NCBI GenBank assembly: GCA_023264445.1
Contig: JAHFMN010000003.1
Location: 18,421 to 82,420 of the forward strand
Source: Candidatus Kaiserbacteria bacterium
GTDB lineage: Bacteria; Patescibacteriota; Minisyncoccia; Phycocordibacterales; Phycocordibacteraceae
DNA length: 64,000 nucleotides
Direction of reading: 5' to 3'
Both the position numbers and the translations under genes were made by a program. The notes beneath the pieces were generated by a model, which worked only from the letters and a program-made list of their open reading frames with translations, was not told the DNA's origin and searched no databases. Within the stretch, counting starts at the first letter, position 1; every line of letters begins with the position of its first letter. Below are positions 1-53,423 of this stretch, in pieces.

Positions 1-780
1 CACGAGATCGAACACAATATTCTTTTCGGAAGTCACCGCATTGAGAAAGCTCTGCAAGAGGCCGAACATATCATATATCGCATTGCCGTAGCTGATGCGC
101 TGCACAGCAAAACCATTCCGCTCGAGCATAGCGCGCAGACTTTCAGGCGAAAAATGAAAGAGATGCCGCGGCACATCAAGATGCAGCCAGTCTGCTGTAA
201 ACAGGCGCGCCTGCCAAGAGCGGTAGTTCGGCACTTCGATGACGAGCATGCCATCTTCCCGTAAGAGCTCAGCTATCCGCTTCAAGTACCGTTCGGGGTC
301 CTGCAGGTGTTCAAACGAGTGCCACGAGGTAATGACGTCAAAAGATGCTTCCGTAAAAGGACAGTTCGGAAGCTCATCTCTACAAATTCTCGCCGCGATG
401 TCCGGGGAGAGATGAGCGCCTTGCGCGCGCTCCGTCCCGTATACATCCCAGCCGAGCGCTGCAGCCGCCTTCAGGAACGAGCCATTTCCGCATCCGACGT
501 CCAGAAGCCGGCCCGGCGGGCGCGCCCAGGCGCGCATGACTTTCCGCATCCAGAGGTAGTTGATGAGGCCGCCCATAGCCCCCTTGCGCGAGCCGTAATA
601 CTGGTCAGCATAGTATGCACCGAGCGCCTCCGAAGTGATGTCCGGCTTCGTAACGCCGAGACCGCATAGAGGGCACTCATAGAGCTTAAACTGGTTGCCA
701 GTCCTGTATTCAGGAGCGTCGTAGCTATACGCGAGATCTGCGCGCAAGCATGCCGGACAACGATAGTGAGCATCCATCAT
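1..780 (-). CDS. Class I SAM-dependent methyltransferase with N-terminal Zn-ribbon (CxxC...CPLC); TylCIII-like sugar C-methyltransferase family. Partial: C-terminus lies beyond the window start.
   Basis: Manual translation of the minus strand from ATG at 780 gives MMDAHYRCPACL...CPLCG...GRLLDVGCGNGSF (SAM motif I) with no stop down to position 1. Absent from the ORF track because it runs off the edge. Paralog of the 9282..10253 gene. Confidence 0.7.
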   Translation of the reverse strand, partial: MMDAHYRCPACLRADLAYSYDAPEYRTGNQFKLYECPLCGLGVTKPDITSEALGAYYADQYYGSRKGAMGGLINYLWMRKVMRAWARPPGRLLDVGCGNGSFLKAAAALGWDVYGTERAQGAHLSPDIAARICRDELPNCPFTEASFDVITSWHSFEHLQDPERYLKRIAELLREDGMLVIEVPNYRSWQARLFTADWLHLDVPRHLFHFSPESLRAMLERNGFAVQRISYGNAIYDMFGLLQSFLNAVTSEKNIVFDLV

Positions 781-4810: not shown

Positions 4811-5581
4811 CTAGACACGCCCACCAATATGGTGCACGTGCGGAGCAGTAAGTGAGAGGCGCTCGAGCTGGGTGGTTGAACGGGCATTCTTTGATTCTAG
4901 GATGCGTGCAGATCGTTCGTGGCGTTTGATATTCCACCCGTACGTATTGTGGACGAGGTCGCCCTCGCGCACATGCACGAGCTTCGCTGCTGCTTTTCCC
5001 GGCCAGAGTATCTGCTGTGCGGCGATGGTTCCCATCTCCTCCATTCCTGCATTGTCCGGGTCGTTCACCGCATCGGCGGTAAGCACGAAACCGGTATGGA
5101 TAAGGTGTCCGGTCGACCACATCGCGCACGTGTTCCAGGGAATCTGCAGACCGCTCGCCCCTTCCACAAGCACACGCTCCCCGGGCGGCGCTTTAACATC
5201 ATGCCCATCGAGACGTGCACCAACGACGAGCGTTTCGTCGTCAGAATGGGATTGCAGGAGCGACACGAGCGATGGCGTCACAGGATATTCGGTGCTTGTG
5301 AAAAGGAGGTGGGTTACTTGCTTTTCTGCACATTTGAGAAGAAGCGCATTCGGCGCTTGCACCACTCTGCCCCATGGGACGACGGAAAATGCAGTGACGG
5401 TCGGATATTTTTCTCGCATGAAATCATGGCTTCCTGAAAGGTCGGCCTCGGTATTAATAGCAACGAACACCTGTTCCGCAGGGACGACCGCAAGCGCTGC
5501 ATCGACCCAGGTCGCGAGGCGCTGGACATCACCCTTGGTGAGTCCATAGAAGCGCGTTGCAATGCCTAATTTCTGCTGCAT
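4811..5581 (-). CDS. Hypothetical protein; possible nucleotide-sugar-modifying enzyme, family not recognised
   Basis: 256 aa from MQQKLGIATRFYGL. Four-nt gap to the upstream ATP-grasp stop. No recognised motif. Confidence 0.35.
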   Translation of the reverse strand: MQQKLGIATRFYGLTKGDVQRLATWVDAALAVVPAEQVFVAINTEADLSGSHDFMREKYPTVTAFSVVPWGRVVQAPNALLLKCAEKQVTHLLFTSTEYPVTPSLVSLLQSHSDDETLVVGARLDGHDVKAPPGERVLVEGASGLQIPWNTCAMWSTGHLIHTGFVLTADAVNDPDNAGMEEMGTIAAQQILWPGKAAAKLVHVREGDLVHNTYGWNIKRHERSARILESKNARSTTQLERLSLTAPHVHHIGGRV

Positions 5582-5585
5582 ATTC

Positions 5586-6794
5586 CTATTGAACGACAAA
5601 TTCCACGACCTGTACTGCCCTCTCTGCGGCTTCCACTGCCTCCGCGCGCGAGGGTGCAAGCGCTATGACATAGCCCACGCGCGATGGATGATTCACTATT
5701 GCGGGAATTTCATCTCCTACCTGCACCCACGGATCGACTTTTTTGATGAACGGCATATTCCTGGCTTCGGTAAGTCCTCGAATTTCTTTGATGACGCCTG
5801 GGGACGGAAAGAAATACCGCTGCGAAGTTGCCATATGCTTCGTCGGGACAAAACGATTCTGATCAACGCTGTTGCCGACGGTCATATCAATGAGGATATC
5901 CACGATATCAACGCCGGTAGACCACGGTACTTTGTCATAGCAGAAGTTGCCGCCGGAGAGGCGCGCCGCTATTTCAATCACGTACGCCTTGCCGTCGTCG
6001 CCCATTACCATGTCTCCTTTTGCAGGCCCCCAATCAATGCCGAGCGCGCGGACCGCCTTTTCAAACTCTTCTTCAACCAATCTTTTCTGCGCAGGGGGAA
6101 GAACCGTCGGGATATCTCCGCCATCTTCAACGAGATGCGGAGTCGTCTTTTCTACGTTCTCGTAATTGCGGTCAGCAAAGCCGGTGCAATGGAATATATT
6201 GTCGTGCATGATGCCCTCGGTGCTCACTTGGAGCCCGGGAATGTATTGCTCGGCAATCAAGTCTCCGGAATACGAATACTTCCTCGCGTACTCAAATGCC
6301 CACGAGAGGTCCGTATCGGCAGTGATGCGCAGGACGCCGCGTGCGCCGGAATTATCCACCGGTTTCAGCACCACCGGGAAGCCGGCATGTTCGATAAAGG
6401 ACTGGAGATCCGCAAGTGTCCGCACCGATGTGAATTTCGGAATGTTCACCCCGCCGCGTTCAAGTTCTTCTTTCATCTTGAATTTCTGCACGCACGTCTG
6501 CGCGACTGAAAGCGGGATATGCTTGACGCCGAGGTATTCCGCCGCCGCAGAAACGCAATGCGGGATGTCGCTTGCAATGGTCATGACGCCATCAATCTTT
6601 TTCTTGTACCCCTTCAGGAACTCAAGGATAGCCGGTACGTCTCGGGTGCTGACCAGATAGAATTCATCGGCATGCGTGGCACCGGCAGCCTTCGGATTCA
6701 TATCAAACACGACCGTATGTATGCCTTTTTCCTTCGCACGATCAATGGCATTCACTTGTTCTATCCCCGCTCCGAGAATCAGAATGGTTTTCAT
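5586..6794 (-). CDS. ATP-grasp domain ligase
   Basis: 402 aa: MKTILILGAG...VVLKPVDNSGARGV...EQYIPG...YVIEIAARLSGG, the typical ATP-grasp pre-ATP-grasp/central/C-domain layout. Confidence 0.75.
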   Translation of the reverse strand: MKTILILGAGIEQVNAIDRAKEKGIHTVVFDMNPKAAGATHADEFYLVSTRDVPAILEFLKGYKKKIDGVMTIASDIPHCVSAAAEYLGVKHIPLSVAQTCVQKFKMKEELERGGVNIPKFTSVRTLADLQSFIEHAGFPVVLKPVDNSGARGVLRITADTDLSWAFEYARKYSYSGDLIAEQYIPGLQVSTEGIMHDNIFHCTGFADRNYENVEKTTPHLVEDGGDIPTVLPPAQKRLVEEEFEKAVRALGIDWGPAKGDMVMGDDGKAYVIEIAARLSGGNFCYDKVPWSTGVDIVDILIDMTVGNSVDQNRFVPTKHMATSQRYFFPSPGVIKEIRGLTEARNMPFIKKVDPWVQVGDEIPAIVNHPSRVGYVIALAPSRAEAVEAAERAVQVVEFVVQ

Positions 6795-6795
6795 A

Positions 6796-7536
6796 CTATG
6801 AGAACAGCATACCGCCGTTTACGTTCAGCGTCTGTCCGGTGATGGATGCAGCAGAGTCCGAAGCGAGGAATGCGACTGCTGCGGCGATCTCCTCTGGTGC
6901 AGTCAATCGGCCGATAGGAATCTGCGCGGCCTTCTGCTTCCCTTCTTTTGAACCAAGCTCTTTTTTAATCATGTCCGTCTCGACGAGACCGGGAGAGACC
7001 GCGTTGCTCGTAATGCCATCTCGCGAAAAAAGCTTCGCGAGCGAGTGCGTAAAGTTGATGAGTCCTGCCTTCGCCGCGGCGTAGTGCACCTGGCGCATGC
7101 CGCCCCACTGCCCGCCGATGGAGACGATATTGATGATGCGGCCCCAGCGCTTCTTCCGCATAGCAGGTACGGTCTCTTGAGCGACAATGAATGCGCCGCG
7201 CAGATTCGTCTCCAGCATGCGGTTCCAGTCAGCATCCGTGATGCGTTCAAAGGGCTTCTCGTCCGCGATGCCGGCGTTATTGACGACGATGTCCGGAGTC
7301 TTCCCCCATTGCTTTCGTACTGCAGCAAGCGCTTTCTTTATTGAAGCTCGACTGCGGATATCGACGCGCACGGCAAGCGCTTCCGGATACTTTTTCTCCA
7401 ATTCCTCCGCACCGTTCTTATGGAGGTTATACCCGCAGGCAACGGAATATCCCTCTGCAAGCAGCTTGCTCGCGACGGCATGTCCGATGCCGCGGCTTGC
7501 GCCGGTGACGAGTGCCAGCTTAGTGTTCGTTTTCAT
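6796..7536 (-). CDS. SDR family oxidoreductase (FabG-like ketoreductase)
   Basis: TGASRGIG cofactor motif, NNAG, catalytic YAAAKAG (YxxxK). Confidence 0.85.
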   Translation of the reverse strand: MKTNTKLALVTGASRGIGHAVASKLLAEGYSVACGYNLHKNGAEELEKKYPEALAVRVDIRSRASIKKALAAVRKQWGKTPDIVVNNAGIADEKPFERITDADWNRMLETNLRGAFIVAQETVPAMRKKRWGRIINIVSIGGQWGGMRQVHYAAAKAGLINFTHSLAKLFSRDGITSNAVSPGLVETDMIKKELGSKEGKQKAAQIPIGRLTAPEEIAAAVAFLASDSAASITGQTLNVNGGMLFS

Positions 7537-7539
7537 AGG

Positions 7540-9285
7540 TTAATCGAACGATGACTCGGAATTCATGTCGTTCAGTTCTTTGCCGCCCATGAGCATAGGC
7601 AGGATGTCTTCCTGCGGATCTATCTCGCAGTGGATGAGCACCGGGCCTTTTCGTTTGAGCGCCTTCGTTATCTTTTCCTTTGCCCCGCGAACTGAAGGGA
7701 CGCTCACGGCATCGATGCCGTATGCGCGCGCGATGTCCGCGAAGTTCGGGTTGCGCTTACCGCCGGTTGCAGGATGCGACTTCCAGTTCTGTCGCTGGAA
7801 TTGCGCCACGATATTAAGAGCATGATTATCGAGGACAAGGATCTTGATATCGAGATTCCGCTCTGCGATAAATGCGAGCTCTTGTATGTTCATCTGGAAG
7901 CTCCCATCGCCCACTACGCAGAGCACCTTCGTGCGCGGGGCGGCCATCTTCGCGCCTATGGCGGCAGGAAGATCGAATCCCATCGTCCCATGACCGGAGG
8001 AAGTGAGGAGCTGACGTTCGGGATGCGAAAACGAAAAATGTCGTGGCACCCACATCTGGTGCTGGCCGACGCCGGTGGCAACGATGACATCCCCGGCGAG
8101 AGCATCGCTTGCCCATTCGATGACATGCTGCGGCTTGAGGTATGCGCCGCGCTGCTGCTCTGGCACGAGGGCGTGCGTCTTTTTCCATTCTTCAATGCTT
8201 GTGAGCCATGCCGTAGTTTTTCCTTTCGTTCGAGCCTTCTTGGAGAGAAGCGCATTGAGTGCCGTGAGTGCCTCGCCCACATCGGCATGTATTTTCAAAT
8301 CAAGCGGTACGCGGCTGTGGTCGAGCTCTTTTTCGTCCACATCTATGCGCGCAACCTTGCCTTGCGGCGTCATCCGCGCGGGCACACTGCCGGTCTGGCG
8401 GACGTGGAGCGTCGTCCCAAGCGCGATGACAAGATCAGCGTTGTAGAGAGCAAGATTCGCATACCGGCTTCCCACGTAGCCGCAGAGGCCGAGCGACAAC
8501 GGTTTATCGGAAGGGTACGCGCCCATGCCAGGGAGACTCATGGTCACTGGTATCGAGAAACGGTCTGCAAGAGAGCGCAATTGGCGCTCCGCGCGCGCCG
8601 CAATGACTCCGCCTCCGGCTAGAATGACCGGACGCTCGGCCTTCACTATCCAGTCCGCAAGCGTTGCCAGCTGTTTCTTCGGCAATGGCAGGCTTTTTGA
8701 TTTCTTTTTCGCAGGAGCTCGCACGATGCGAGGCGAAATGACGGCACGCTGGACGTTCATGGGAAGATCGACGACGACCGGACCTCCTCGCCCCTCTCGA
8801 GCAAGTGCAAACGCTTGCTCCATGACAGAGGGGAGTTCAGTTGGCTCTGTCACGAGCCATGCGGCCTTCGTGATCGGAGTGAGCACGTCAACCGTATCCA
8901 CTTCTTGAAAACCGCGCTGTTTGACGGGAATTTTCCCGCGCAAGTCGCTTGTCCCTACTTGTCCGGTAAGCACCACCATCGGCACATTATCGAAATACGC
9001 ATCTGCTATCGGCGTCACGGCGTTCGTCACGCCCGGACCTGAAGTGACCATGTAGACCGCCGGCTTCCCAGTCACCTTCGCATAGGCAAGAGCGGCAAAA
9101 CCCGCACCTTGTTCATTCTTCGGACAGATGATTTCTATATCCGTCTCCTTCTCTACTACGTCCAAAATAGGCCCAATGGTCCCGCCCGGATAGATAAATA
9201 CTTTCTCCACGCCATTGCGCTTGAATGCTTCTACGATCGCGTGCGCGCCGAACTGGTCGCGCTTTTGTGTGTGTTTCTTTTTCAT
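7540..9285 (-). CDS. Thiamine-pyrophosphate enzyme of the acetolactate synthase large-subunit family (YerE-like candidate)
   Basis: 581 aa with Pyr domain, central domain and TPP-binding domain (GDGSFQMNIQELA...NN TPP motif). ATGA overlap with the downstream Zn-ribbon methyltransferase. Confidence 0.8.
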   Translation of the reverse strand: MKKKHTQKRDQFGAHAIVEAFKRNGVEKVFIYPGGTIGPILDVVEKETDIEIICPKNEQGAGFAALAYAKVTGKPAVYMVTSGPGVTNAVTPIADAYFDNVPMVVLTGQVGTSDLRGKIPVKQRGFQEVDTVDVLTPITKAAWLVTEPTELPSVMEQAFALAREGRGGPVVVDLPMNVQRAVISPRIVRAPAKKKSKSLPLPKKQLATLADWIVKAERPVILAGGGVIAARAERQLRSLADRFSIPVTMSLPGMGAYPSDKPLSLGLCGYVGSRYANLALYNADLVIALGTTLHVRQTGSVPARMTPQGKVARIDVDEKELDHSRVPLDLKIHADVGEALTALNALLSKKARTKGKTTAWLTSIEEWKKTHALVPEQQRGAYLKPQHVIEWASDALAGDVIVATGVGQHQMWVPRHFSFSHPERQLLTSSGHGTMGFDLPAAIGAKMAAPRTKVLCVVGDGSFQMNIQELAFIAERNLDIKILVLDNHALNIVAQFQRQNWKSHPATGGKRNPNFADIARAYGIDAVSVPSVRGAKEKITKALKRKGPVLIHCEIDPQEDILPMLMGGKELNDMNSESSFD

Positions 9286-12792: not shown

Positions 12793-13941
12793 TTAGTTTG
12801 GAAAATGGAATTGAAAAATCTCTTCGCCACGAATCTGGAGCGGCATCTTCTCTTTGAGGTCTTCGCCAGCGCGCTTCCCCACCACTTCCGCATACTGAAG
12901 GGCCGAGACGCCGATATCCGGGCGTAGCAGTGATAACGATTCTGCGGTCAGAATAGTTCCCTTCGCTACGGGCGCGCGCAGATACACTCCGCGCCGCGCC
13001 CACTGGCGCTCGTCCGCTTCCCGCATGATATATGAACCTTCGACACCAGGGTGCGTGACGGTCGTGCCATGAGGCGCGGGACGCTTGATGCCATCCCCTA
13101 GTGCCTTATCGAAATCCTCCACGAACTCCTTGCGGAGCTCCTTAAGAACAACTTCTTTATCCGAGCGAGCATCGATGGCGTGAATCCTTCGTACCATATC
13201 TGCGAACTCTTCGACCGACATGGAGAAAACGTCATCAATCGAGCCGCGCGCTTTCTTTGAAGTAACGTGCTTTTCGATGACGGACGCGCCCATCGCCACC
13301 GCCATAAGCGGCACCAGTACGCCGCGTGAGCCATTGTCGGAATATCCGGCGAGCACATCGAATTCTGCAGCAAACGTCTGCATCGCTCGTACATTCGCGT
13401 CTTCAAAACTCGTCGGATAGACCGATACGCATTGCAGAAGCACGATATCCTTCGCGCCATGTGCGCGGAGCGTTTCCATCGCCATACGCACTTCTTCCAT
13501 GGTAGCCATACCGGTCGACATGATGATCGGTTTGCCGAAACTCGCGGCACGCTCCAAAAGAGGCAGATTCGTAAGCTCCCCAGAGGCTATCTTGACCGCC
13601 GGCACGCCGACACTATCCAGAAACGATGCTCCATCGACATCAAATGGCGTGCAAAGCAGGTCGATGCCTCGCTCGTCGCAAAGTGCCTTCAGCTTCGGAT
13701 ACCACTCCCGCGGCGTCTCCGTAGTCTTGAAATAGTCATAGGTTCCCTTGAGGCCGGGCGTGAGCGGCACGAGCAGTTTGTCGGCTTCAAAGAGCTGGAA
13801 CTTAACCGCGTCAGCGCCTGCGTCCGCCGCCTGGGCGACATACGACTGCGCCATTTCCCAATCATTGCCATGCGTACTCGCGACCTCAAAGATGATATAG
13901 GTCGGTCGTCCGGGTCCGAGCTCTCTGGTGCCTAGGTGCAT
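12793..13941 (-). CDS. neuB: N-acylneuraminate-type nonulosonic acid synthase (NeuB/PseI/LegI family) with C-terminal SAF domain
   Basis: TYIIFEVASTHGNDWEMAQ...KFQLF...IMSTGMAT...VLLQCVSVYPT plus C-terminal SAF (GVYLRAPVAKGTILT). Start set at MHLGTRE (13941), 17 nt after the upstream stop. Confidence 0.85.
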   Translation of the reverse strand: MHLGTRELGPGRPTYIIFEVASTHGNDWEMAQSYVAQAADAGADAVKFQLFEADKLLVPLTPGLKGTYDYFKTTETPREWYPKLKALCDERGIDLLCTPFDVDGASFLDSVGVPAVKIASGELTNLPLLERAASFGKPIIMSTGMATMEEVRMAMETLRAHGAKDIVLLQCVSVYPTSFEDANVRAMQTFAAEFDVLAGYSDNGSRGVLVPLMAVAMGASVIEKHVTSKKARGSIDDVFSMSVEEFADMVRRIHAIDARSDKEVVLKELRKEFVEDFDKALGDGIKRPAPHGTTVTHPGVEGSYIMREADERQWARRGVYLRAPVAKGTILTAESLSLLRPDIGVSALQYAEVVGKRAGEDLKEKMPLQIRGEEIFQFHFPN

Positions 13942-16227: not shown

Positions 16228-17544
16228 TCAATTCAAGCGCTGGAATCCTGTGTGGGCGACGGGACCCTTCAGCCGCTTCATGACATCACCACGCTTGACT
16301 GCTTCTGCGATGATCTTGAACACTGCATCGACTGCATGAAGATAATTTTTGATGTGTACGGTAGTGTGCGCGGCACTTGCGAAGTAGAGATTGCTTGCGA
16401 GAAATCCGCGCTCCAGCATTTCTTGCACGAAGAGCGTCTTGAGCGCTTGTGCGTTCGGATGATTGAAAGAGAAACTGGCGATCGGCATGACACCGCCCAT
16501 AGTAATCGAGAGTCCATGTTTGCGCGCAAGGCGCTCCCATCCAGCGCGGACAGTCTGTCCGTTTTTCGCGATGCGTTCCCATACTTTTATCTTTTTCATC
16601 TTCTTCAGGGTTGCAAGCGCGGCAACGGGTCCGATGCGTTCGGTCCAGTAGGTGCTCGAGATGAAAGAACCTTGCGCCGCCTCCATAACTTTCCGACGGC
16701 CGATGATAGCCGCCATCGGATAGCCATTGCTCATCGCTTTGCTGAAGACGGCGATATCCGGATTCACTTTATAGAGAAGATGCGAACCGCCGTAGGTGAG
16801 CTTCCAACCCACTGTTATTTCATCAAATACCAGTACGGCGCCGGTTTTGTCGGCGATACGACGTACCTTTTGAAGGAAATTGTCGCGTGGCTCCTCTCCG
16901 TGTATCGGCTCCATGATAATGGCCGCGAGATTCTTTCCATGCTTGCGCACGATGGCTTCAAGTTCCTCTATCTTGTTGTAGTGGAATGGGATGACCGTAC
17001 CGCGCAGACTTTTGGGCACGCCCTTCGGGGAAAGTCCTGCGAGCAGATGCTCCTTGAGGCCATCCTTGCGCGCGAGATTCGTCGCAAGATACCAGTCGTG
17101 CCAGCCGTGGTAGCCACAAAAGGCGATGACGTCTTTACCGGTAGAGGCGCGCGCGATGCGTTCGGCTATGGCCATCGCTTCCCCGCCAGTGCGCGCATAG
17201 CGCACCATATCCGCCCATGGATGGATTTTCGTGAGTAGCTCTGCGAGCTCTACTTCCTCCGGTGCATTCAATGTGGACATGGAACCCGCGTCCACGGCTT
17301 TCTTCACTGCCTTGTTCACGTCCGCATCAGCATAGCCGAGAATACAGCTTCCCACGCCCATAATGGACATATCGGTATATTTCTCCCCATCCAGATCCCA
17401 CACCTCGCATCCCTTCGCTTTTGAGTAATATGCCGGCCAATAATCCGGCAGGAACATCTCGGGCCGCTTTGAAAGAAGCTGCGTCCCGCCCGGGATGAGC
17501 TTTTTCGCTTTTTCGTAGAGTTTTTGTCCCGTATTCTTTTTCAT
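16228..17544 (-). CDS. Class III PLP aminotransferase (glutamate-1-semialdehyde aminomutase-like)
   Basis: GYHGWHDW, VFDEITVGWK, AVFSKAMSNGYP motifs. Start at MKKNTGQKLYEKAKKLIPGG. Confidence 0.8.
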   Translation of the reverse strand: MKKNTGQKLYEKAKKLIPGGTQLLSKRPEMFLPDYWPAYYSKAKGCEVWDLDGEKYTDMSIMGVGSCILGYADADVNKAVKKAVDAGSMSTLNAPEEVELAELLTKIHPWADMVRYARTGGEAMAIAERIARASTGKDVIAFCGYHGWHDWYLATNLARKDGLKEHLLAGLSPKGVPKSLRGTVIPFHYNKIEELEAIVRKHGKNLAAIIMEPIHGEEPRDNFLQKVRRIADKTGAVLVFDEITVGWKLTYGGSHLLYKVNPDIAVFSKAMSNGYPMAAIIGRRKVMEAAQGSFISSTYWTERIGPVAALATLKKMKKIKVWERIAKNGQTVRAGWERLARKHGLSITMGGVMPIASFSFNHPNAQALKTLFVQEMLERGFLASNLYFASAAHTTVHIKNYLHAVDAVFKIIAEAVKRGDVMKRLKGPVAHTGFQRLN

Positions 17545-17548
17545 ATCA

Positions 17549-18229
17549 TCATGCGCCGGGGCGGTAACCGCCACCGATTACTTTCTTGTAGAGCGTCGCG
17601 GCGGCGCGGAAGTCATCCCGGGTTTTCGCTGTTGCATGCTTCTTTGCATCTGCCGTATAGGTATATACCCGCTCAACGCGGATATAGTTGCCGCTTGCTT
17701 CGAAGAGTGCCCCGTAATCCGCTTTATACGTGAAGACGCCGGGGCGATAGCGATACGGATTCTTGCGGGGTTCTCGAGGCAAGAAATCGCAGATGATGAG
17801 GTAGCCGCCGTCTGTAATAGCACGGTCTATTTCAGCGACAGACTGAAGAAGCGTGTCACGCGAGACCCAATGAAAGGTGAACACCGCAAGAGCCAGGTCA
17901 AACGAAGCGTCCTTGACCGGAAGTTTCGCGGCTACGCCGCGCTTGAGTTCTATGCGAGGAAATTTTTTCTTGCCGGCAGCGACAGCAGACGCAGACGGCT
18001 CCACGCCGACATACTGCGCGCGCGGACGCGCGCGACGCATGGCTTCAAGCCGCCAGCCGTTTGCGGCCCCGACATCAAGCACGCGCTTCGGATGCAACCG
18101 GTGCTTCAGGATGAGCTTCTCAACGAGGTCGCTACGCATCTCTCGTGCTTCGGGCGTAAGCGCATCCGCATTGCGCGCGTACCATGCATCAGCTTCTTTT
18201 TTACTGAAAATGTCGTCTTGGTTTTTCAT
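17549..18229 (-). CDS. Class I SAM-dependent methyltransferase
   Basis: RVLDVGAANGW motif I, 226 aa. ATGA overlap with the upstream PseC-like gene. Confidence 0.75.
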   Translation of the reverse strand: MKNQDDIFSKKEADAWYARNADALTPEAREMRSDLVEKLILKHRLHPKRVLDVGAANGWRLEAMRRARPRAQYVGVEPSASAVAAGKKKFPRIELKRGVAAKLPVKDASFDLALAVFTFHWVSRDTLLQSVAEIDRAITDGGYLIICDFLPREPRKNPYRYRPGVFTYKADYGALFEASGNYIRVERVYTYTADAKKHATAKTRDDFRAAATLYKKVIGGGYRPGA

Positions 18230-19368
18230 GCGTTCTTGAGTGCCGTGCGAAGCGCTTCTGCCACGCGCTTCTGCTGTGCAGGCGTTATCTTTGCAAACAG
18301 AGGCAACGATATCTCGGCCACGACGAACGCTTGCGTCTTTGGGCAGAGTTTCTGCGAGTATCCGAGATCCTCATAGAGAGGATGCGTGTGGACGGGGATA
18401 TGATGCACCTGCACGCCGATCCCTTGCGACCGCAAGGAATCGAAGACTGCGCGGCGCTTTGAAGGGTCTTTGAGACGCAGCGTATAGAGGTGCCAGGCAG
18501 AGCGTTCAAAGGCACGTTCATCTAGCGGGAGTACGACGCCGGGAATATTCTTCAGGAGTGAGCCGTAGCGCTTCGCCGCCGCGCGGCGCTTGGCGATGAA
18601 AGAATCAAGGCGCTTCAGCTGGCTCTCGCCGAGCGCGGCGAGAATGTCCGGCATGCGGTAATTGAAGCCGAGCGCATGCATCTCCATATGCCATCCCCCA
18701 TCCTCATTGCGTCGTAGGTACAGCTTTTCTTTCGTAATGCCATGACTACGGAAGAGCCGGAGTGTACGGGCATATTCTGCATCATTGGTGGTCACTGCCC
18801 CGCCCTCGGCAGTCGTAATCGATTTGACCGGATGGAAACTGAAGATCGTCATGTCGGCAAGTGACCCTGTCTTTTTTCCACGATACGAAGCACCCAGACT
18901 TTGAGCGCCATCCTCGATGAGGACGAGCTTGTATTTCTTCGCGAGCGCGCGGAACTCTCGCATGTCTGCAGGCCGACCCGTGTAATCAACCGGCACGATG
19001 ACCTTCGTCTTCTTCGTTATGTTTTTGCGCACATCCGCGACGCTCATATTCCCTGTCGCTGGATCTATATCAGCAAATACGGGCTTCGCACCGAGATAGA
19101 GCGCCGCATTCGCCGTAGCGGCAAAGGTGAGCGCTGGCACGATGATTTCGTCGCCCTTTGTGATACCGGCAGAAAAATACGCCGCGTGAAGCGCCGCCGT
19201 TCCGGAATTGAACGTAACGGCGAACTTCGCGCCGACTTTTTTGGCGAGTGCTTTTTCAAAACGCTCGATAGCTGGCCCTTGCGTAAGCCAGCCAGACTTC
19301 AAGGTCTGCACGACTGCCTTCACGTCGGCTTCGTTTATGTCCTGCGTGGAGTACGGGATCATGCGCAT
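18226..19368 (-). CDS. pseC: PseC-like DegT/DnrJ/EryC1/StrS sugar aminotransferase
   Basis: MRMIPYSTQDINEADVKAVVQTLKSGWLTQGP...SFHPVKSITTAEGGAV (PLP lysine). The N-terminal IPYxxQ...LTQG signature is typical of PseC-type enzymes. Confidence 0.8.
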   Translation of the reverse strand: MRMIPYSTQDINEADVKAVVQTLKSGWLTQGPAIERFEKALAKKVGAKFAVTFNSGTAALHAAYFSAGITKGDEIIVPALTFAATANAALYLGAKPVFADIDPATGNMSVADVRKNITKKTKVIVPVDYTGRPADMREFRALAKKYKLVLIEDGAQSLGASYRGKKTGSLADMTIFSFHPVKSITTAEGGAVTTNDAEYARTLRLFRSHGITKEKLYLRRNEDGGWHMEMHALGFNYRMPDILAALGESQLKRLDSFIAKRRAAAKRYGSLLKNIPGVVLPLDERAFERSAWHLYTLRLKDPSKRRAVFDSLRSQGIGVQVHHIPVHTHPLYEDLGYSQKLCPKTQAFVVAEISLPLFAKITPAQQKRVAEALRTALKNA

Positions 19369-19372
19369 AAGA

Positions 19373-20350
19373 TTACTGTGTCGTGAGCGACAGCGCCATC
19401 TCCACGACCCGTTCGGTCGCACCCGTAGGCCATACCTCGCGCAGAGGACGATTCTCGAAGGGCCAGGTACCTTCCGCATATGCCGCGAGCACCCGTTTGA
19501 GTTCTTCCGGAGAATCAATGCGGGTCGTCACGCCTGCGCGGTTGCTCACTAGCTCGTCAGGTCCCTGAAGGGAAGGCCCGTAGCAGAGCACTTTTTTCCC
19601 TGCCGCTGTGGCCTGCATGAGAACGGGAGTCGCCGGACCGATGATGAGCCCGCTTTTCGAGAGCGCTTCTTCAAGCGTCGCTTCGCTTGCCATGTGCACA
19701 CGACTATCGAGATAACGATCGTATTTGTTTCTCTCATCGCGTGGATGGAGACGAATGAAAAGATTGTAGCCTTCGGGAAGCGCCGTACGTATTGCTTCAA
19801 GCATCTGATACTCGTCCGTTGTGGGAGTAGCAAAACCCGGTAGTAATGCATCCGAACGAATTGGCTGGGATATGAAAAGAATGCGTTTCTGGTCTTCGTC
19901 CGTGCGAGTGATGCCGTCGGCAAAGTGATCGAAATGCGGATTGCCGGTGATGACAAGCCGCTCAGCAGGAAATCCTTCAGCAATCATCTCTTCCTTCGCA
20001 ATATCGTCTATCACGCATACGATATCAGGCAGATACGCGAAATCCTTGGCACCGGGATTAGAGAATCTCTGCCAATAATTCGACCAGAAATCGAGTACGG
20101 CGATTACGGGTGCTGTGCCGTGCATCGCTTCGGTCACCTGCTTTTCAATGCTTGGTCCCCCGCTTGTGCCCACAACCACCACGTCGGGGTCATGCATATC
20201 ACCTTGCGGAATATCGCGTGCAGTACACATATCGCGTGCGGCCCCTTCCACTTGCGCAACGACTTCATCACCGCGTTCTATGAATGCCTTGGCAACCGGT
20301 ATGACTGAGTTCGCGCCGCCTGGATCCTGCGCTGATATGAGTACTTTCAT
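19373..20350 (-). CDS. GT-B fold protein; PseG-like UDP-sugar hydrolase or NeuC/MurG-like
   Basis: MKVLISAQDPGGANSVIPVAKAF... two Rossmann-like halves. Sits between two DegT genes in a Pse-like operon. ATGA overlap with the upstream gene. Confidence 0.5.
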   Translation of the reverse strand: MKVLISAQDPGGANSVIPVAKAFIERGDEVVAQVEGAARDMCTARDIPQGDMHDPDVVVVGTSGGPSIEKQVTEAMHGTAPVIAVLDFWSNYWQRFSNPGAKDFAYLPDIVCVIDDIAKEEMIAEGFPAERLVITGNPHFDHFADGITRTDEDQKRILFISQPIRSDALLPGFATPTTDEYQMLEAIRTALPEGYNLFIRLHPRDERNKYDRYLDSRVHMASEATLEEALSKSGLIIGPATPVLMQATAAGKKVLCYGPSLQGPDELVSNRAGVTTRIDSPEELKRVLAAYAEGTWPFENRPLREVWPTGATERVVEMALSLTTQ

Positions 20351-21549
20351 TTTTTCTTTGCCGCTGCGATGACCTCCCGCATAGCATCGGCAAACGCATC
20401 GATATGCGCCGCAGTGTAGGGATGCTGGCATACATCCGTGCCGATAAGCTCCTGCTCATGCATGCGCTCGGTCACGGGACAGATACCTTTTCGGTACTCT
20501 TGCGTCATCCCGTCGTAATCGAATGGGAAATGCGTCGCATTGAAAGCCTGTTTCTTCTGGAAAAGCGGCAAGAGATAGAGCGGCTTCACATACCCGGCTC
20601 CGATGGGAAAACCGAGCTTCTGCAATTTCGCGACGAGCTCGGCGCGCGAGATGCCGAGTTTTTTTGCATCCATCTTCATGATGTATGAGTAATAGACATG
20701 CGTATTGCCCTTCGGGATGTGCGGCGGCGTGAGCCCAGGGATGTTTGAGAGTTTTCTGGTAAGACGATTCGCAAGAGCAACACGCTTGCGGTTCAGAAAA
20801 TCAAGCTTTGACAGCTGCACCTCGGCGATAGCGGCAGTCACTTCCGTCATGCGGTAATTACTGCCGAAGATAGGTCCCGCGGCGTAGCCGGGCATGCCGG
20901 GCACGACCGATTCGCCATGATTACGTGCGAGCTGCGCGCGAAGCGCGAATGTCTTGTTATTGGTTACTAGCACCCCGCCCTCGCCTGATTGAATCTGCTT
21001 GTGCACATTGAAGCTGAAGACGCCGATGTCTCCCACTGTGCCTGTGTACTGCCCCTGCCACGTCGCTCCGGCTGACTGTGCATTGTCCTCTATGACCGAG
21101 AGCTTGTGCTTTTTGGCGAGCGCAAGGAGCGCGCCCATGTGTCCGGTCTGGCCGAAGAGGTTGACCATCATCACCGCCTTCGTGCGCTTCGTTATCTTTT
21201 TCTCCACAGACTTCGGATCAATACAGAATGTGTCGGGGTCGATATCGGCGAATATCGGCACGGCGCCGTTCATAAGGACTGCGGTTGCAGAAGCTGACAT
21301 CGTGTAGGGCGGCACGATGACTTCGTCTCCGGGACCAATGGATAGCGCGACGACTGCGCCATGCAGCGCGGTCGTCGCAGAATTGAAGGAAACGACATGC
21401 CTGACCTTAAATTTTTTCGCGAACGCCGATTCAAATCGCTTCACGACCGGACCGCCGAAAAAATCCGCGCTCGCATCGCCGACGAAGCCGGATAGCGGAC
21501 CCTTCTTAAGCACGGCGGTTACCGCTCGTATTTCGCGTGCGTCTATCAT
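20347..21549 (-). CDS. DegT/DnrJ/EryC1/StrS family PLP sugar aminotransferase
   Basis: VIVPPYTMSASA...VIEDNAQSAGA...FSFNVHKQIQSGEGG. Start chosen at MIDAREIRAV (21549); alternative M at 21594. Confidence 0.8.
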   Translation of the reverse strand: MIDAREIRAVTAVLKKGPLSGFVGDASADFFGGPVVKRFESAFAKKFKVRHVVSFNSATTALHGAVVALSIGPGDEVIVPPYTMSASATAVLMNGAVPIFADIDPDTFCIDPKSVEKKITKRTKAVMMVNLFGQTGHMGALLALAKKHKLSVIEDNAQSAGATWQGQYTGTVGDIGVFSFNVHKQIQSGEGGVLVTNNKTFALRAQLARNHGESVVPGMPGYAAGPIFGSNYRMTEVTAAIAEVQLSKLDFLNRKRVALANRLTRKLSNIPGLTPPHIPKGNTHVYYSYIMKMDAKKLGISRAELVAKLQKLGFPIGAGYVKPLYLLPLFQKKQAFNATHFPFDYDGMTQEYRKGICPVTERMHEQELIGTDVCQHPYTAAHIDAFADAMREVIAAAKKK

Positions 21550-21574
21550 GTAGACGGGCGGAAAGGTTATCTTG

Positions 21575-22564
21575 TTATTTCTTTTTTTGCGCATGTTTTT
21601 TTATTTCTTCCAAGAGTTCCACGACGGCGCGACCGTTCTCTACGCCGCTTTCTGGCCGTTCACGATTCGTGAGGTACTGGGCGGCGCGATCAAGGGCATG
21701 TGCGGGAGCTCCGCGCCGTACCGTCGCGCGTGCGCGGTCAAGCGCGCGCTCGCCTTTGTAGGAAGATGATCGGGCGGGCGTCTCAATGAGCGCATCGCTA
21801 TTATCGAGCAATGCCCGCTCGCCTTTGCTTCCTAGTATGCGGATATCAAATATGCCGTACGCCTTCTGGTCGATACTTTGCAGGACAACGCGAGTGCCTG
21901 TTTTTGTCTCCAGAACGGCGTCTACACATGAATCGCCCGATGGATGCATCGCCTTCGGATTGGTCCGTGCCCACACTGCGTGCATGTCTTCGCCGAGGAG
22001 ATACTGAAGCGCATCCAATGCATGTCCACCATTATTGTATAACCCGTTGCTGTAGTAACAGGTCACCTGCTGTATGGTGCCGAGCGCGCCCGAATGAATA
22101 TCGCGGCGCACGCGCGCCATAAGCGGTGAGAATCGCCGCTGATAGTTGACCACGAACACTCCTTTGTCTTTGGAAACCATGCGAGCTATGGCGCGCGCGT
22201 CACGTGCGGTTTCTGCAAGCGGTTTCTCGCAGACGATAGCGCGCACGCCAGCACGAAGGCATTCCTGGATAGGGACGAGACGGACAGACGGCGGCGTTGC
22301 AATCACGACGATATCAGGACGTTCTTTCTGCAGGCACTCGCGCACGGAACGGTATCGCCCTACTTTGGGAAAAATCTTTCCCGCGCGCAGGAGCGCTTTT
22401 GCGTTCGTATCAACGAGCGCAACTAATTCAGTCTTCGGGTTTGCCTGTGCGACGCCGGCATGGCTCGCCGGCTTTCTCCGAAGTGGTTCCGCTTCGTAGA
22501 GCACTCCCACCCTTCCGCATCCGATGATGGCGACGCGATACGGGGCTGGTGTGTTGCGGCGCAT
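21575..22564 (-). CDS. Gfo/Idh/MocA family NAD(P)-dependent oxidoreductase
   Basis: VAIIGCGRVG Rossmann motif, EKP motif (IVCEKPLA), 329 aa. Confidence 0.8.
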   Translation of the reverse strand: MRRNTPAPYRVAIIGCGRVGVLYEAEPLRRKPASHAGVAQANPKTELVALVDTNAKALLRAGKIFPKVGRYRSVRECLQKERPDIVVIATPPSVRLVPIQECLRAGVRAIVCEKPLAETARDARAIARMVSKDKGVFVVNYQRRFSPLMARVRRDIHSGALGTIQQVTCYYSNGLYNNGGHALDALQYLLGEDMHAVWARTNPKAMHPSGDSCVDAVLETKTGTRVVLQSIDQKAYGIFDIRILGSKGERALLDNSDALIETPARSSSYKGERALDRARATVRRGAPAHALDRAAQYLTNRERPESGVENGRAVVELLEEIKKHAQKKK

Positions 22565-22566
22565 GA

Positions 22567-23571
22567 CTACGGCGCAAAAAGGTTCTTAGCTTCTTTTTGC
22601 GAAAGGAGGAATTTCTTATTGTTGCTCATATAGAGGAATGATTTCGGGGCGGAGCGGTAGCGCAAGAGCCAGTCGGCATTGCCTCCCCTGTGCACGATGG
22701 CGAACATGCGCGGGAGCTCGCACGTGCGATGCACTTCGTACTGCGTGAGCAATACCTCGTGCAGTTTCTCGCCCGGGCGCATACCGATGACTTGCACTTT
22801 GCATTCCGGCGCAAGTAGTTTGACGACATCCATGATGGGCATGTGCTTCATTTTCGGGACGAAGATCTCGCCGCCCTGCATGAGCGCGAGCGCTTCGAGC
22901 ACGATGTCCATCACCGACTCGATGCGTATCCAAAATCGCGTCATCTCCTTATGCGTCACGGTGATGGTGCCAGTCTGTTTCTGTCGGTCTATGAGCTCCA
23001 CGAACGAGCCCCGGCTGCCAATAACGTTGCCGTAGCGTATGACGCTGAGCGCGGTGTTGCTGTTGTCGCCGACATATGAATTTGCCGCGATGAAGAGCTT
23101 CTCTGCGGCCATCTTGGTCGCACCATAGAGATTGATGGGCTCGACCGCCTTGTCGGAAGAAATAAGTAATACCTTAGACACCTTCTTATCAAGCGCCGCA
23201 TCTATGACGTTCTTGCTTCCGATGATGTTCGTCTGTATCGCCTCAAACGGATTGTATTCGATGGAGTCCACACGCTTCAGCGCCGCCGCATGCACGACGA
23301 TGTCCACTCCCTCAAAGGCACGCCGGAGACGCTCCGGATCGCGGATGTCGCCGATAAAGAAGCGCAGGCGCGGTTCATCGCGATGCAGGGCGGCGAGCTC
23401 GCTCTGCTTGAGCTCATCGCGGCTAAACACGATGATCTTGGCGATGCCGGGGACTGCCGAGAGGCGCTTGATGAAGGCACGACCAAAGGTACCGGTGCCC
23501 CCCGTGATAAGGATGGTCTTGCCCTTCAAAAAGTCAGTGGGGGCTTGCCAGGAAGCCTTTTTTATAGCCAT
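22567..23571 (-). CDS. pseB: UDP-GlcNAc 4,6-dehydratase (PseB/FlaA1/PglF-like, Polysacc_synt_2)
   Basis: ILITGGTGTFG...YGATKMAAE (YxxxK), 334 aa, typical short PseB/FlaA1 length. Confidence 0.85.
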   Translation of the reverse strand: MAIKKASWQAPTDFLKGKTILITGGTGTFGRAFIKRLSAVPGIAKIIVFSRDELKQSELAALHRDEPRLRFFIGDIRDPERLRRAFEGVDIVVHAAALKRVDSIEYNPFEAIQTNIIGSKNVIDAALDKKVSKVLLISSDKAVEPINLYGATKMAAEKLFIAANSYVGDNSNTALSVIRYGNVIGSRGSFVELIDRQKQTGTITVTHKEMTRFWIRIESVMDIVLEALALMQGGEIFVPKMKHMPIMDVVKLLAPECKVQVIGMRPGEKLHEVLLTQYEVHRTCELPRMFAIVHRGGNADWLLRYRSAPKSFLYMSNNKKFLLSQKEAKNLFAP

Positions 23572-23634: not shown

Positions 23635-24645
23635 TCAGAAATCCTTTACGCCAATCCATAGAGGCACAGGGTCGCCGCCGAGATGCCGCTTGAAGTCCGC
23701 AATGGCGGCCTCTTTCTCCGTACTGCCGGTTTGCCATCCCATATCGTACCGCTCGAACCCTCGGCGTTTGAGCTCCTGCATGATCCGCCACTGAATGAAC
23801 TGGCCGATGCCGCGCAGATTGCGATACTGCGGATCGGTCGCAGCCATGCCATAGGAAGCGCAGCGCTTATATATTGTGACGAGTGCTCCGGAAAGATAGC
23901 CGCCTGCATGCTCCTGACGGAGGAGCGCCAGGAGCGCGTGCCCAGAGCGCACGCGCCCGAGCAGCTCTCGCGTGCGCTCTGGCGACCCTATCGGCCGACC
24001 CGCTGCTAACGCATAGAGGTCGGTGAATGCTGTCCACGCCTCTTCGGTGATCGTATCGCTATCAAAGAAATCTGTCTTGTATCCCTGTTTCTCCGCAAAC
24101 GTAATATCCGACCTATTTCCTTTGGAGACGCGTGAACGGAGTGTGTCCTCGTCGTGGCGCAGGTCCATGATATACGTCACCGTGCTCGTATCGGCATATC
24201 CGAACTGGAGAAAGGGATTAGTGGCGAATGCGGCATCAGTAAGCGGGTCAATGAACATCCTGCTGCGCGCGATGCCGAGCGTGAGCGCGAGTCGATCAAT
24301 CTCTTTCATGCATGCGGCGTAGATTGCTGCCTGTTCACTCGGAGAGAGTGCGTCAGCAAGCGCAGGCGAAGGGTTCGGCAAACTGTGCGTATCGGACGGG
24401 CGTGTATTGACGCTGAAGGCGAATTCCCGTCCCTTCGTAGCGATGAGTGGCTCAATGATGAGAGGCGCGATGGCGACAAGTGTTGCTCCTTCTTTCATGC
24501 CGAAAGAACGGTCCTCGCTACTCTCATCTAGCGCGAGCGCCGCGCGCCGACCGTCGCTTCGGTGACGTATCCAGGCTCCGGGCGACGCGTCGCAGAATGC
24601 ATCCCATTGTGCATCCCCTATATCCTGATGTTGAACGACCTCCAT
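23635..24645 (-). CDS. FemAB-family/GNAT-fold acyl- or aminoacyl-transferase
   Basis: 337 aa from MEVVQHQDIGDAQWDAFCD; two GNAT-like halves typical of FemABX proteins. Start chosen 5 nt after the upstream stop. Confidence 0.5.
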   Translation of the reverse strand: MEVVQHQDIGDAQWDAFCDASPGAWIRHRSDGRRAALALDESSEDRSFGMKEGATLVAIAPLIIEPLIATKGREFAFSVNTRPSDTHSLPNPSPALADALSPSEQAAIYAACMKEIDRLALTLGIARSRMFIDPLTDAAFATNPFLQFGYADTSTVTYIMDLRHDEDTLRSRVSKGNRSDITFAEKQGYKTDFFDSDTITEEAWTAFTDLYALAAGRPIGSPERTRELLGRVRSGHALLALLRQEHAGGYLSGALVTIYKRCASYGMAATDPQYRNLRGIGQFIQWRIMQELKRRGFERYDMGWQTGSTEKEAAIADFKRHLGGDPVPLWIGVKDF

Positions 24646-24649
24646 AGCG

Positions 24650-40197: not shown

Positions 40198-40228
40198 CAA
40201 CAAAAAAACGCCCCTCATACGAGGGGCG
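40198..40228. terminator. Bidirectional intrinsic terminator between convergent genes
   Basis: A-tract caacaaaaaaa, 8-bp GC stem cgcccctc/gaggggcg with atac loop. On the minus strand the hairpin (containing the rSAM stop codon) is followed by a T-tract. Confidence 0.65.
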
Positions 40229-41711: not shown

Positions 41712-41801
41712 CTCGATATCCTTTCGTAATAGGTTGTTGAAGGAGCTCCGTAGCGGAGCATACCATTTTCTCTTTTGTCAAGAAAGATTGACAATTGAGG
41801 T

Positions 41802-53417: not shown

Positions 53418-53423
53418 ACGGGG

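Follow-up and report, generated by a model that had tools for sequence, protein, structure and literature searches.

The closest described counterpart of the locus considered here is the sfmABCDE operon of Shewanella oneidensis MR-1 (SO_3261-SO_3265, with neighboring genes SO_3266-SO_3269), reported by Bubendorfer et al. in 2013 (PMC3765264). The locus itself lies in a 64-kb stretch of Candidatus Kaiserbacteria contig JAHFMN010000003.1 (this whole stretch is hereafter termed the window) and encodes an acetolactate synthase (ALS)-like enzyme dependent on thiamine diphosphate (ThDP, or TPP), a short-chain dehydrogenase/reductase (SDR), an ATP-grasp ligase, and a methyltransferase. The Sfm products are a 290-residue NeuB, a 581-residue ThDP protein termed "IlvB," a FabG-like reductase, a 395-residue methyltransferase, and a 412-residue ATP-grasp protein (PMC3765264). 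Deletion of sfmA, sfmB, sfmC, or sfmD abolishes the mass shift of flagellin, whereas deletion of sfmE leaves a slightly smaller shift (PMC3765264). The Shewanella flagellin glycan has a core of 274 Da, a mono-N-acetyl pseudaminic-type acid (C11H18N2O6), and this core bears a nitrogen-free unit of 236 Da (C9H16O7) with zero to two methyl groups (236-264 Da) (PMC3765264). A 2023 preprint describes the Shewanella sugar as an atypical pseudaminic acid (Pse) derivative and remarks on the oversized cytidylyltransferase SO_3269; neither this preprint nor the 2013 paper (PMC3765264) solves the structure of the 236-264-Da unit or the reactions of SfmB-E.

The original prediction for this locus named a different precedent, the YerE/YerF pathway to yersiniose, and proposed that the ThDP enzyme and the SDR attach and then reduce a two-carbon branch on a nucleotide-activated keto-sugar. 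The YerE-like lyases that have been named are YpYerE, ErwE, JanthE (8RPH), and PpYerE. Three classes of ThDP enzyme are associated with the branching of keto-sugars: YerE-like members of the decarboxylase superfamily, E1-type alpha-keto acid dehydrogenases, and, as a proposal only, split-gene transketolases (PMC12247030). The acetohydroxyacid synthase (AHAS) subclass is described as taking alpha-keto esters for acceptors (PMC12247030).

Relationship to the sfm and yer Systems

SfmB was recovered as P0295 and the MR-1 locus as L170. Identities between window proteins and SfmA, SfmB, SfmC, SfmE, SO_3267, and SO_3269 were 38, 42, 50, 37, 28, and 26%, respectively. The match to SfmB extended over 565 residues (454 bits) and that to SO_3267 over 275 residues, and the match to SO_3269 corresponded to its N-terminal cytidylyltransferase domain. 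Judged by these matches, the triad of ThDP enzyme, SDR, and ATP-grasp protein, together with the accompanying methyltransferase, is orthologous to SfmB, SfmC, SfmE, and SO_3267. No tblastn match to SfmD or SO_3268 was found in the window at E ≤ 1e-4, and SO_3266 gave only short methyltransferase-domain matches. Similarly, the window contained no Maf or flagellin homologue, and no flagellar domains were observed in its Pfam scans, which covered open reading frames (ORFs) of at least 200 residues up to 30 kb and of at least 180 residues beyond, less four short or overlapping ORFs. Given that the host belongs to the Patescibacteria, the target of the glycan is probably not flagellin. The window holds a probably non-flagellar case of an Sfm-type module, a kind known from genetics. 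Papers on flagellin glycosylation in Plesiomonas and the Enterobacteriaceae, and one on Aeromonas, made no mention of such a module.

The relationship to YerE was assessed by bit scores to JanthE (8RPH, entry identity confirmed) and to 5AHK, which we take to be PpYerE. The window ThDP enzyme scored 211 bits against JanthE and 261 bits against 5AHK, compared with about 360 bits against AHAS structures and the higher value noted above for SfmB. These low scores place the window enzyme outside the characterized YerE subclass. Of the proposed precedent, therefore, the logic of C2 addition followed by ketoreduction was retained, supported by a transketolase in a related locus (L090, described below), whereas membership of the YerE family was not. 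The sfm operon, which the original prediction did not name, is closer.

The ThDP Enzyme Is Distinct from Canonical Acetohydroxyacid Synthases

The ALS-like gene encodes a full-length protein, as had been claimed, in which TPP_enzyme_N, TPP_enzyme_M, and TPP_enzyme_C are all present (E values of 1e-35 to 2e-46). Its best relatives of solved structure are AHAS catalytic subunits (E value of 1e-106), and the alignment seems to run through the FAD-contact motifs of AHAS free of large gaps, as judged overall rather than residue by residue. The protein scored 528.0 bits against TIGR00118, under the cut-off of 538.35, and fell far under every other ALS equivalog cut-off. In BLASTP comparisons, canonical AHAS proteins showed 33-39% identity (303-374 bits), whereas members of a separate clade showed 42-50% identity (434-541 bits), with the closest relatives at 62-77%. 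A midpoint-rooted neighbor-joining (NJ) tree, which carried no bootstrap support and did not include YerE, placed the window protein and its relatives, SfmB among them, apart from canonical AHAS.

Sequence motifs distinguish the two groups. An insertion of six residues gives the clade the signature GQVGTxD(L/M)xxxxx(V/I)(R/K)QxGFQEV in place of the canonical GQVxxxxIGxDAFQE. In addition, R(L/F)D(V/L)RQTG replaces RFDDRVTG, the Asp before the Arg having become Val or Leu, and VSQFQ or VAQFQ replaces VRQWQ, so that the Trp of the acceptor pocket is exchanged for Phe. The window enzyme itself reads VAQFQ and HVRQTG and carries the insertion. The clade retains the catalytic Glu, the Gln of FQE, and, invariantly, the Arg that aligns with Arg377 of plant AHAS, and the motifs NEQGAG and GFQEV are found in the window enzyme. 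Arg377 of AHAS binds the carboxylate of the acceptor.

The genomic setting was compared with that of a canonical control set, consisting of ilvB loci (34-40% identity) obtained from a scan of genome contigs with the ThDP protein keyed on generic AHAS motifs. An ilvN-like gene follows the ThDP gene in 35 of 80 canonical ilvB loci but in none of 91 loci of the window type (window included). Within the window, an ilvN-like query and the Pfam scans of larger ORFs revealed no ilvN, ilvC, or ilvD, and no second ThDP enzyme of the ALS-like kind was found there. Given the sub-threshold TIGR00118 score, the lack of an ilvN, ilvC, or ilvD partner, and the separate clade, the enzyme is assigned to a clade of its own and is not an AHAS of branched-chain amino acid biosynthesis. 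The alternative that an ordinary ALS, serving Val, Leu, and Ile synthesis or acetoin formation, has come to lie in a glycan cluster by chance is regarded as extremely improbable: the TIGR00118 score just below the threshold and the AHAS structures as best solved matches speak for it, and against it stand the absent ilv partners, the indel and motifs peculiar to the clade, a glycan context that is conserved across phyla, and the Shewanella mutants, which prove genetically a role in modifying flagellin. The original prediction had likewise excluded a branched-chain amino acid context and had read the enzyme as glycan-linked and paired with a ketoreductase rather than as an AHAS; clade, TIGR00118 score, and context all agree with this. 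Clustering with true ALS proteins together with an ilvN or ilvC partner, the combination that would have spoken against it, was not observed within the window, the protein occupying a separate NJ clade.

The Conserved Unit Includes an ATP-grasp Ligase

The gene junctions in the window are tight. The TGA stop codon of the methyltransferase gene lies within the ATG of the ThDP gene in a 4-nt overlap (ATGA, "gcgatATGAaaa"), in accord with the translational coupling claimed originally, and the SDR gene, correctly placed after the ThDP gene, starts 3 nt past its stop codon (TAA-cct-ATG). The ATP-grasp gene starts 1 nt past the SDR stop codon, and the boundary first drawn around a two-gene unit consequently had to be moved, the unit extending into the ATP-grasp gene. 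The methyltransferase bears CPVC...CASC at its N terminus; the 420-residue ORF obtained mechanically is over-extended relative to the gene called on the public contig, and a homologous methyltransferase lies upstream of the ThDP gene in many related loci. The best NCBIfam models for the SDR are FabG, acetoacetyl-CoA reductase, and 3-hydroxybutyrate dehydrogenase; the reductases of nucleotide sugars are usually extended SDRs. The C terminus of the ATP-grasp protein is an L-amino acid ligase domain (LAL_C2), and among solved structures the protein is nearest to 3VOT, an L-amino acid ligase (3.5e-26).

Thirteen contexts anchored on the ThDP gene were compared (window/L001, L002, L083-L089, L170, L171, and L172). 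Those with a taxon name belong to the Alphaproteobacteria and to Shewanella, and the others are metagenome contigs. SDR and ATP-grasp genes adjoin the ThDP gene in all 13. L171 and L172 have the genes in a different order, SDR-ThDP-ATP-grasp, which indicates that the linkage of the triad is functional rather than inherited synteny. A second sample comprised 80 metagenome loci anchored on the ATP-grasp gene and mapped by tblastn. In the near group (at least 60% identity), the SDR gene was adjacent to the ATP-grasp gene in 46 of 50 loci, and the ThDP gene lay upstream in 20 of 21. In the distant group (about 40% identity), the corresponding values were 10 of 12 and 1 of 7, such that the SDR-ATP-grasp pair persists without the ThDP gene in six of seven distant loci.

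The three proteins diverge in step, with identities (ThDP enzyme/SDR/ATP-grasp protein) of 64/69/67% to Rhizomicrobium and 42/50/37% to Shewanella. The former values, obtained for window positions 5586-9285 against L002:10001-13700 (Rhizomicrobium, Alphaproteobacteria), are unusually high across such distant phyla, which suggests that the three genes may have been transferred horizontally as one unit.

Genes that recur beside the unit encode a short NeuB, a CTP_transf_3 protein (often fused to an aldo/keto reductase), PseB, DegT, one to three methyltransferases, and a GH57-like protein of 640-690 residues. A TPR protein is found in the alphaproteobacterial loci L002, L085, and L086, and flagellins are encoded in L084. 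The GH57-like protein (637-690 residues) was observed in L084, L085, L087, L089, L170, and L171 (for example, L170:17281-19197, which is SO_3268) and is absent from the window; its match to Glyco_hydro_57 is weak and confined to the N-terminal part. It may stand in for the PseG-type UDP-sugar hydrolase, which is missing. A DAO-family oxidase conserved in the alphaproteobacterial loci was considered as a supplier of glyoxylate and set aside, since it keeps its place by the recG/mfd flank in L085, where island genes are lacking, and neither Shewanella nor the window has it.

Variation at the position of the ThDP gene was also observed. The ATP-grasp protein (76%) and the 256-residue protein (82%) of L090 are the closest relatives of those in the window. 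This locus lacks the ALS-like gene, whose slot directly upstream of the SDR gene is taken by a split transketolase (Transketolase_N followed by Transket_pyr/Transketolase_C; L090:7470-9247, plus strand), with the SDR, ATP-grasp, and GT-A-fold genes retained after it. This replacement shows that an ALS-like enzyme and a split transketolase are interchangeable at this position, a pairing that parallels the classes of enzyme employed in branching sugars. L090 also holds two additional ATP-grasp genes and two methyltransferase genes. Two fusions of the ThDP enzyme occur in otherwise typical loci: P0121 (L088:2175-4589), a CTP_transf_3::ThDP protein of 804 residues, and P0122/P0274 (L089:10001-13006), a methyltransferase::ThDP protein of 1001 residues in which a Methyltransf_14 domain, of the sugar C-methyltransferase type, forms the C-terminal part of the methyltransferase. 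This domain was seen only in the methyltransferases of L088 and of the P0122 fusion. PDB searches with SfmD and with the 397-residue methyltransferase of L002 revealed no link to TcaB9- or KijD1-type enzymes, and a general connection to sugar C-methyltransferases was dropped.

The 256-residue protein always follows the ATP-grasp gene in loci of the window type. It has no Pfam or NCBIfam match; 104 homologues share 56-83% identity with it, and every named one comes from the Patescibacteria (Nomurabacteria, Paceibacterota, and Kaiserbacteria), which points to a probable host of the candidate phyla radiation. Its AlphaFold2 (AF2) model (pLDDT of 83) has a GT-A/nucleotidyltransferase fold, and Foldseek matched this model to EXTL2, GpgS, TarP, and IspD with E values of about 1e-5 and TM scores of about 0.5. 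The protein is probably a transferase that uses the decorated or finished sugar in Patescibacteria.

In the wider cluster, PseB, DegT, NeuB, and cytidylyltransferase genes identify what is predicted to be a pathway to a nonulosonic acid of the pseudaminic or legionaminic type, so that the "sugar cluster" of the original prediction is specifically a nonulosonic acid cluster. The ThDP enzyme, SDR, ATP-grasp protein, and coupled methyltransferase are assigned to this pathway as one accessory module.

A Proposed Function for the Module

With gene content, orthology, clade separation, and conserved linkage established as above, we infer the following substrates, order of steps, and product. The reading that we favor, tentatively and at somewhat less than an even chance, is that the ThDP enzyme and the SDR make an alpha,beta-dihydroxy acid, which the ligase joins to a sugar amine through an amide bond and the methyltransferase caps. 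Here, the AHAS-like enzyme would decarboxylate pyruvate and add the resulting hydroxyethyl-ThDP carbanion to a carbonyl acceptor that carries a carboxylate (a 2-keto acid or glyoxylate), giving an alpha-hydroxy-beta-keto acid, or 2-acetolactate if both substrates are pyruvate. The FabG-like SDR would reduce the beta-keto group to yield the dihydroxy acid. The ATP-grasp protein would then activate the carboxylate as an acyl phosphate and form an amide with one of the sugar's amino groups, for which the 4-amino group of a UDP-hexose intermediate or N7 or N5 of the nonulosonic acid are candidates, and would in this way fill the role of the N-acetyltransferase of the canonical pathway. Methylation of the new side chain would follow. 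The decorated CMP-sugar would be used by the GT-A-fold protein, and the ATP-binding cassette (ABC) transporter would carry the glycan out to the surface of the cell; for Proteobacteria, flagellin is the target.

Several observations argue for acid synthesis followed by amide formation. The ligase is the invariable partner of the ThDP enzyme and resembles ligases of small-molecule carboxylates (the L-amino acid ligases), and the classical SDR of the FabG/3-hydroxybutyrate dehydrogenase type likewise points to a small-molecule route. The invariance of the AHAS acceptor Arg in the clade argues for a carboxylated acceptor. The survival of the SDR-ligase pair without the ThDP gene fits a ligase with a modular supply of acids. 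With regard to the Shewanella glycan, C9H18O8 equals two 3-deoxy-2-keto acids totalling 10 carbons, less CO2 and plus two hydrogens, as would result from AHAS-type coupling and then ketoreduction. Given that C9H16O7 also fits a 3,9-dideoxynononic acid, or a heptose with a hydroxyethyl branch, the formula cannot discriminate between the models.

A number of points weigh against this proposal. The activities favored for the ThDP clade are a prediction. The outer 236-264-Da part of the Shewanella glycan comes off readily, both in the ion source and on collision-induced fragmentation, and the 274-Da part seems to keep a basic group or free amine (PMC3765264); such lability and basicity would suit a glycosidic bond better than an amide. 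A scheme in which SfmB, SfmC, and SfmD feed SfmE also fails to predict that the sfmB, sfmC, and sfmD mutants lose all modification and the sfmE mutant keeps a little. Moreover, the enzyme in the ThDP slot of L090 is a split transketolase; transketolases normally use aldehyde acceptors, and the split type has been proposed for keto-sugar branching. The fusions of the ThDP enzyme to a cytidylyltransferase and to a Methyltransf_14 methyltransferase hint at nucleotide-sugar chemistry, the basic six-residue insertion, which lies near the substrate channel, could bind a nucleotide, and two FemAB/GNAT-like genes of the window could be responsible for N-acylation.

Some of the same observations bear on branching of the YerE/YerF kind, in which a nucleotide-activated keto-sugar (for example, the PseB product or an oxidized CMP-nonulosonic acid) would receive C2 from pyruvate at its keto carbon, the SDR would reduce the acetyl branch to 1-hydroxyethyl, and the ATP-grasp protein would carry out an unrelated amidation. 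Such branching is considered unlikely, yet it gains weight from the L090 replacement, given that both enzyme classes have been linked to keto-sugar branching (PMC12247030), from the two fusions, from the PseB-type 4-keto sugar enzyme and GFO oxidoreductase in the cluster, from the fit of C9H16O7 to a branched heptose, and from the lability of the outer moiety in mass spectrometry. It is opposed by a protein that is much nearer to AHAS than to JanthE, by the invariant Arg for the acceptor carboxylate, by a reductase that is classical rather than extended, and by the constant ATP-grasp partner, which it leaves unexplained; nor did the Pfam scans of the window turn up genes for CDP-3,6-dideoxyhexose synthesis. 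A form of this idea that dispenses with YerE kinship, namely that an enzyme of the AHAS sister clade was independently recruited to add a C2 branch to a keto intermediate of the nonulosonic acid pathway and gave way to a split transketolase in one lineage, is likewise judged unlikely. If true, it would yield a C-branched sialic acid-like sugar, a class not yet described, from Patescibacteria and on proteobacterial flagellins.

A long-chain variant is judged quite unlikely; in it, the ThDP enzyme would join a NeuB-type 3-deoxy-2-ulosonic acid, as donor or acceptor, either to pyruvate or to a second acid of this type. Reduction would give a branched polyhydroxy C9 acid for ligation by the ATP-grasp protein, and the Shewanella C9H16O7 unit would be explained. 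The formula fit to two 3-deoxy-2-keto acids is exact, the YerE-like ErwE takes long hydroxylated 2-keto acids as donors (PMC12247030), many loci have a short NeuB gene in tight linkage with the module, and the acceptor pocket is probably enlarged (Trp to Phe) and accompanied by the basic insertion. However, each sampled locus has one NeuB, which is required for the nonulosonic acid core, and the formula match is weak evidence when several unrelated structures fit equally well. Very unlikely is a chain extension resembling that of DXS, with transfer of C2 onto an aldehyde (a sugar aldehyde or an aldehyde-acid) and reduction of the ketone by the SDR to leave an unbranched CH3-CHOH-CHOH tail: the L090 transketolase would suit an aldehyde acceptor, but the 9-deoxy tail of Pse and legionaminic acid already arises from the PseB route, and the aldehyde required would be hypothetical.

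Gene Organization of the Window

The principal features of the cluster are listed in Table 1. Throughout the first 24 kb of the window, every gene is on the minus strand with minimal spacing.

Table 1. Coordinates of the module and its neighboring genes in the window
Feature	Position	Strand	Basis of assignment
Zn-ribbon S-adenosylmethionine (SAM) methyltransferase, 323 residues	9282..10253	-	Methyltransf_23 (4e-21); homologue of SO_3267 (MT303)
SfmB-like ThDP (TPP) enzyme, 581 residues	7540..9285	-	TPP_enzyme_N/M/C; sister clade of AHAS catalytic subunits
SfmC-like classical SDR ketoreductase, FabG-like, 246 residues	6796..7536	-	adh_short_C2 (9e-62)
SfmE-like ATP-grasp carboxylate-amine ligase, 402 residues	5586..6794	-	LAL_C2 (8e-21) and ATP-grasp_3
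256-residue protein, predicted GT-A/nucleotidyltransferase fold	4811..5581	-	AF2 model and Foldseek; no Pfam family
ABC exporter, 586 residues	2995..4755	-	ABC_tran and ABC_membrane
Two paralogous polysaccharide pyruvyl-transferase-family genes, 417 and 416 residues	10261..12786	-	PS_pyruv_trans (1e-21, 4e-26)
NeuB-family nonulosonic acid synthase with SAF domain, 382 residues, SfmA counterpart	12793..13941	-	NeuB (3e-74); PseI/NeuB NCBIfam models
CTP_transf_3 cytidylyltransferase::aldo/keto reductase fusion, 554 residues	14560..16224	-	Pfam
Nonulosonic acid precursor genes	16228..23571	-	Pfam

According to Pfam, the precursor genes encode a class-III aminotransferase, a methyltransferase, a DegT protein (PseC-like), a 352-residue protein of unknown function, a second DegT protein, a GFO/IDH oxidoreductase, and a PseB-like 4,6-dehydratase. 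A DUF218 protein sits among the fused cytidylyltransferase, NeuB, and pyruvyl-transferase-family genes. The triad is followed downstream by the 256-residue protein, the ABC exporter, a GT2 glycosyltransferase, and a PMT_2 protein, and the exporter keeps the same position in the closest relatives L001, L083, and L090. The remainder of the window holds glycosyltransferases, FkbM methyltransferases, a B12-radical-SAM enzyme, sugar epimerases/dehydratases, an LTD/PKD surface protein, a TrwB-like ATPase, MurC/MurD-type ligases, and an amino acid kinase-family protein. The larger ORFs scanned with Pfam comprised glycan, cell-wall, and surface genes only.

Several of these genes have distinctive features. 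The two pyruvyl-transferase-family paralogues are ∼31% identical and separate NeuB from the methyltransferase; members of the family occur again in L083, L091, L157, L164, and L168, adjoining the SDR-ATP-grasp pair in the distant loci L157, L164, and L168, which have no ThDP gene. The fusion of cytidylyltransferase and aldo/keto reductase is also found in alphaproteobacterial L002 and L086, and in L083 two separate genes encode its halves. Shewanella SO_3269 is likewise oversized (574 residues), its C-terminal part having no known Pfam domain.

Farther along the minus strand, positions 23635-24831 encode a FemAB/GNAT-like protein (Acetyltransf_6/FemAB) that could acylate or aminoacylate a sugar amine. 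The ORF at 26988-28061 (minus strand) gave no Pfam match, and its kinship to this protein is only suspected from reading the sequence; it, too, could have such an acylating or aminoacylating activity. A DegT-family ORF of 302 residues (24650-25558, minus strand) matches profile positions 109-308 of 360 and overlaps a neighboring ORF by ∼180 nt; it is either a truncated aminotransferase or one with a mis-set start. The B12-binding radical-SAM enzyme (498 residues) and an exostosin/GT47-like protein (371 residues) at 40215-42917 (minus strand) are unusual in bacterial surface-glycan clusters. Past the glycosyltransferase block, a lamin-tail-domain/PKD surface protein lies beside a TrwB/TraG-type coupling ATPase (52032-55190, minus strand). 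A second Methyltransf_23 methyltransferase, 28% identical to SO_3267, lies downstream of the PMT_2 gene (55-696, minus strand); as read, it has 214 residues, the ORF being near the edge of the window.

Significance and Comparison with Known Systems

That the sfm genes are essential for the flagellin glycan of Shewanella has been known since 2013. The unit described here spans the Alphaproteobacteria, the Gammaproteobacteria, marine metagenomes, and probable Patescibacteria. Its signature separates the ThDP clade from true acetolactate synthases, among which public annotations often file it, and the label ilvB is unsuitable for proteins with GQVGTxD(L/M)x5(V/I)(R/K)QxGFQEV and VSQFQ or VAQFQ. 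The replacement by transketolase, the two fusions, and the formula constraint narrow the chemistry to ThDP-dependent C2 transfer, ketoreduction, and amide ligation, with a short list of substrates.

With canonical AHAS/ALS proteins (IlvB, IlvG, and IlvI; for example, PDB entries 6LPI, 1JSC, and 1YBH), the window enzyme has in common the three-domain fold, the catalytic Glu, the Gln of FQE, the acceptor Arg, GVGQHQMW, and the C-terminal lid. It differs from them in the insertion after GQV, in the Asp to Val/Leu and Trp to Phe exchanges, in having neither a regulatory subunit nor an ilv context, and in its separate clade.

In the N-acylation of viosamine on Pseudomonas syringae flagellin, the genes encode a KAS-III-like synthase, a FabG-like reductase, an acyltransferase, and a methyltransferase. 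The logic is similar to that favored here, in that an enzyme forming a C-C bond generates a beta-keto acyl group, a FabG-like protein reduces it, an amide is made with a sugar amine, and a methyltransferase is present. By contrast, the P. syringae route is bound to an acyl carrier protein and uses an acyltransferase, whereas the module would use a free acid, a ThDP enzyme, and an ATP-grasp ligase, and there is no sequence relationship between the two.

Like YerE/YerF, the window pairs a ThDP enzyme of the ALS superfamily with a reductase encoded after it in a surface-glycan cluster, and pyruvate-derived C2 chemistry is plausible for it. Unlike that system, its pathway is of the UDP/CMP nonulosonic acid kind rather than CDP-3,6-dideoxyhexose (ddh/asc), its reductase is a classical FabG-type SDR of 246 residues and not an extended SDR of the nucleotide-sugar type, and its ThDP enzyme has an obligatory ATP-grasp partner for which the branching model offers no explanation.

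The differences from the sfm locus of MR-1 are those of setting and accessory genes. The window is without SfmD, SO_3266, SO_3268 (GH57-like), Maf, GlfM, or flagellar genes; its NeuB is a long form with a SAF domain, and its cytidylyltransferase is fused to an aldo/keto reductase. It has in addition two pyruvyl-transferase-family genes, a class-III aminotransferase, the GT-A-fold protein, and an ABC exporter. Common to both loci are a NeuB-type synthase, an ALS-like ThDP enzyme of 581 residues bearing the clade signature, a FabG-like SDR, an ATP-grasp protein with LAL_C2, a Zn-ribbon methyltransferase of the SO_3267 type, a CTP_transf_3 enzyme, and PseB and PseC as neighbors.

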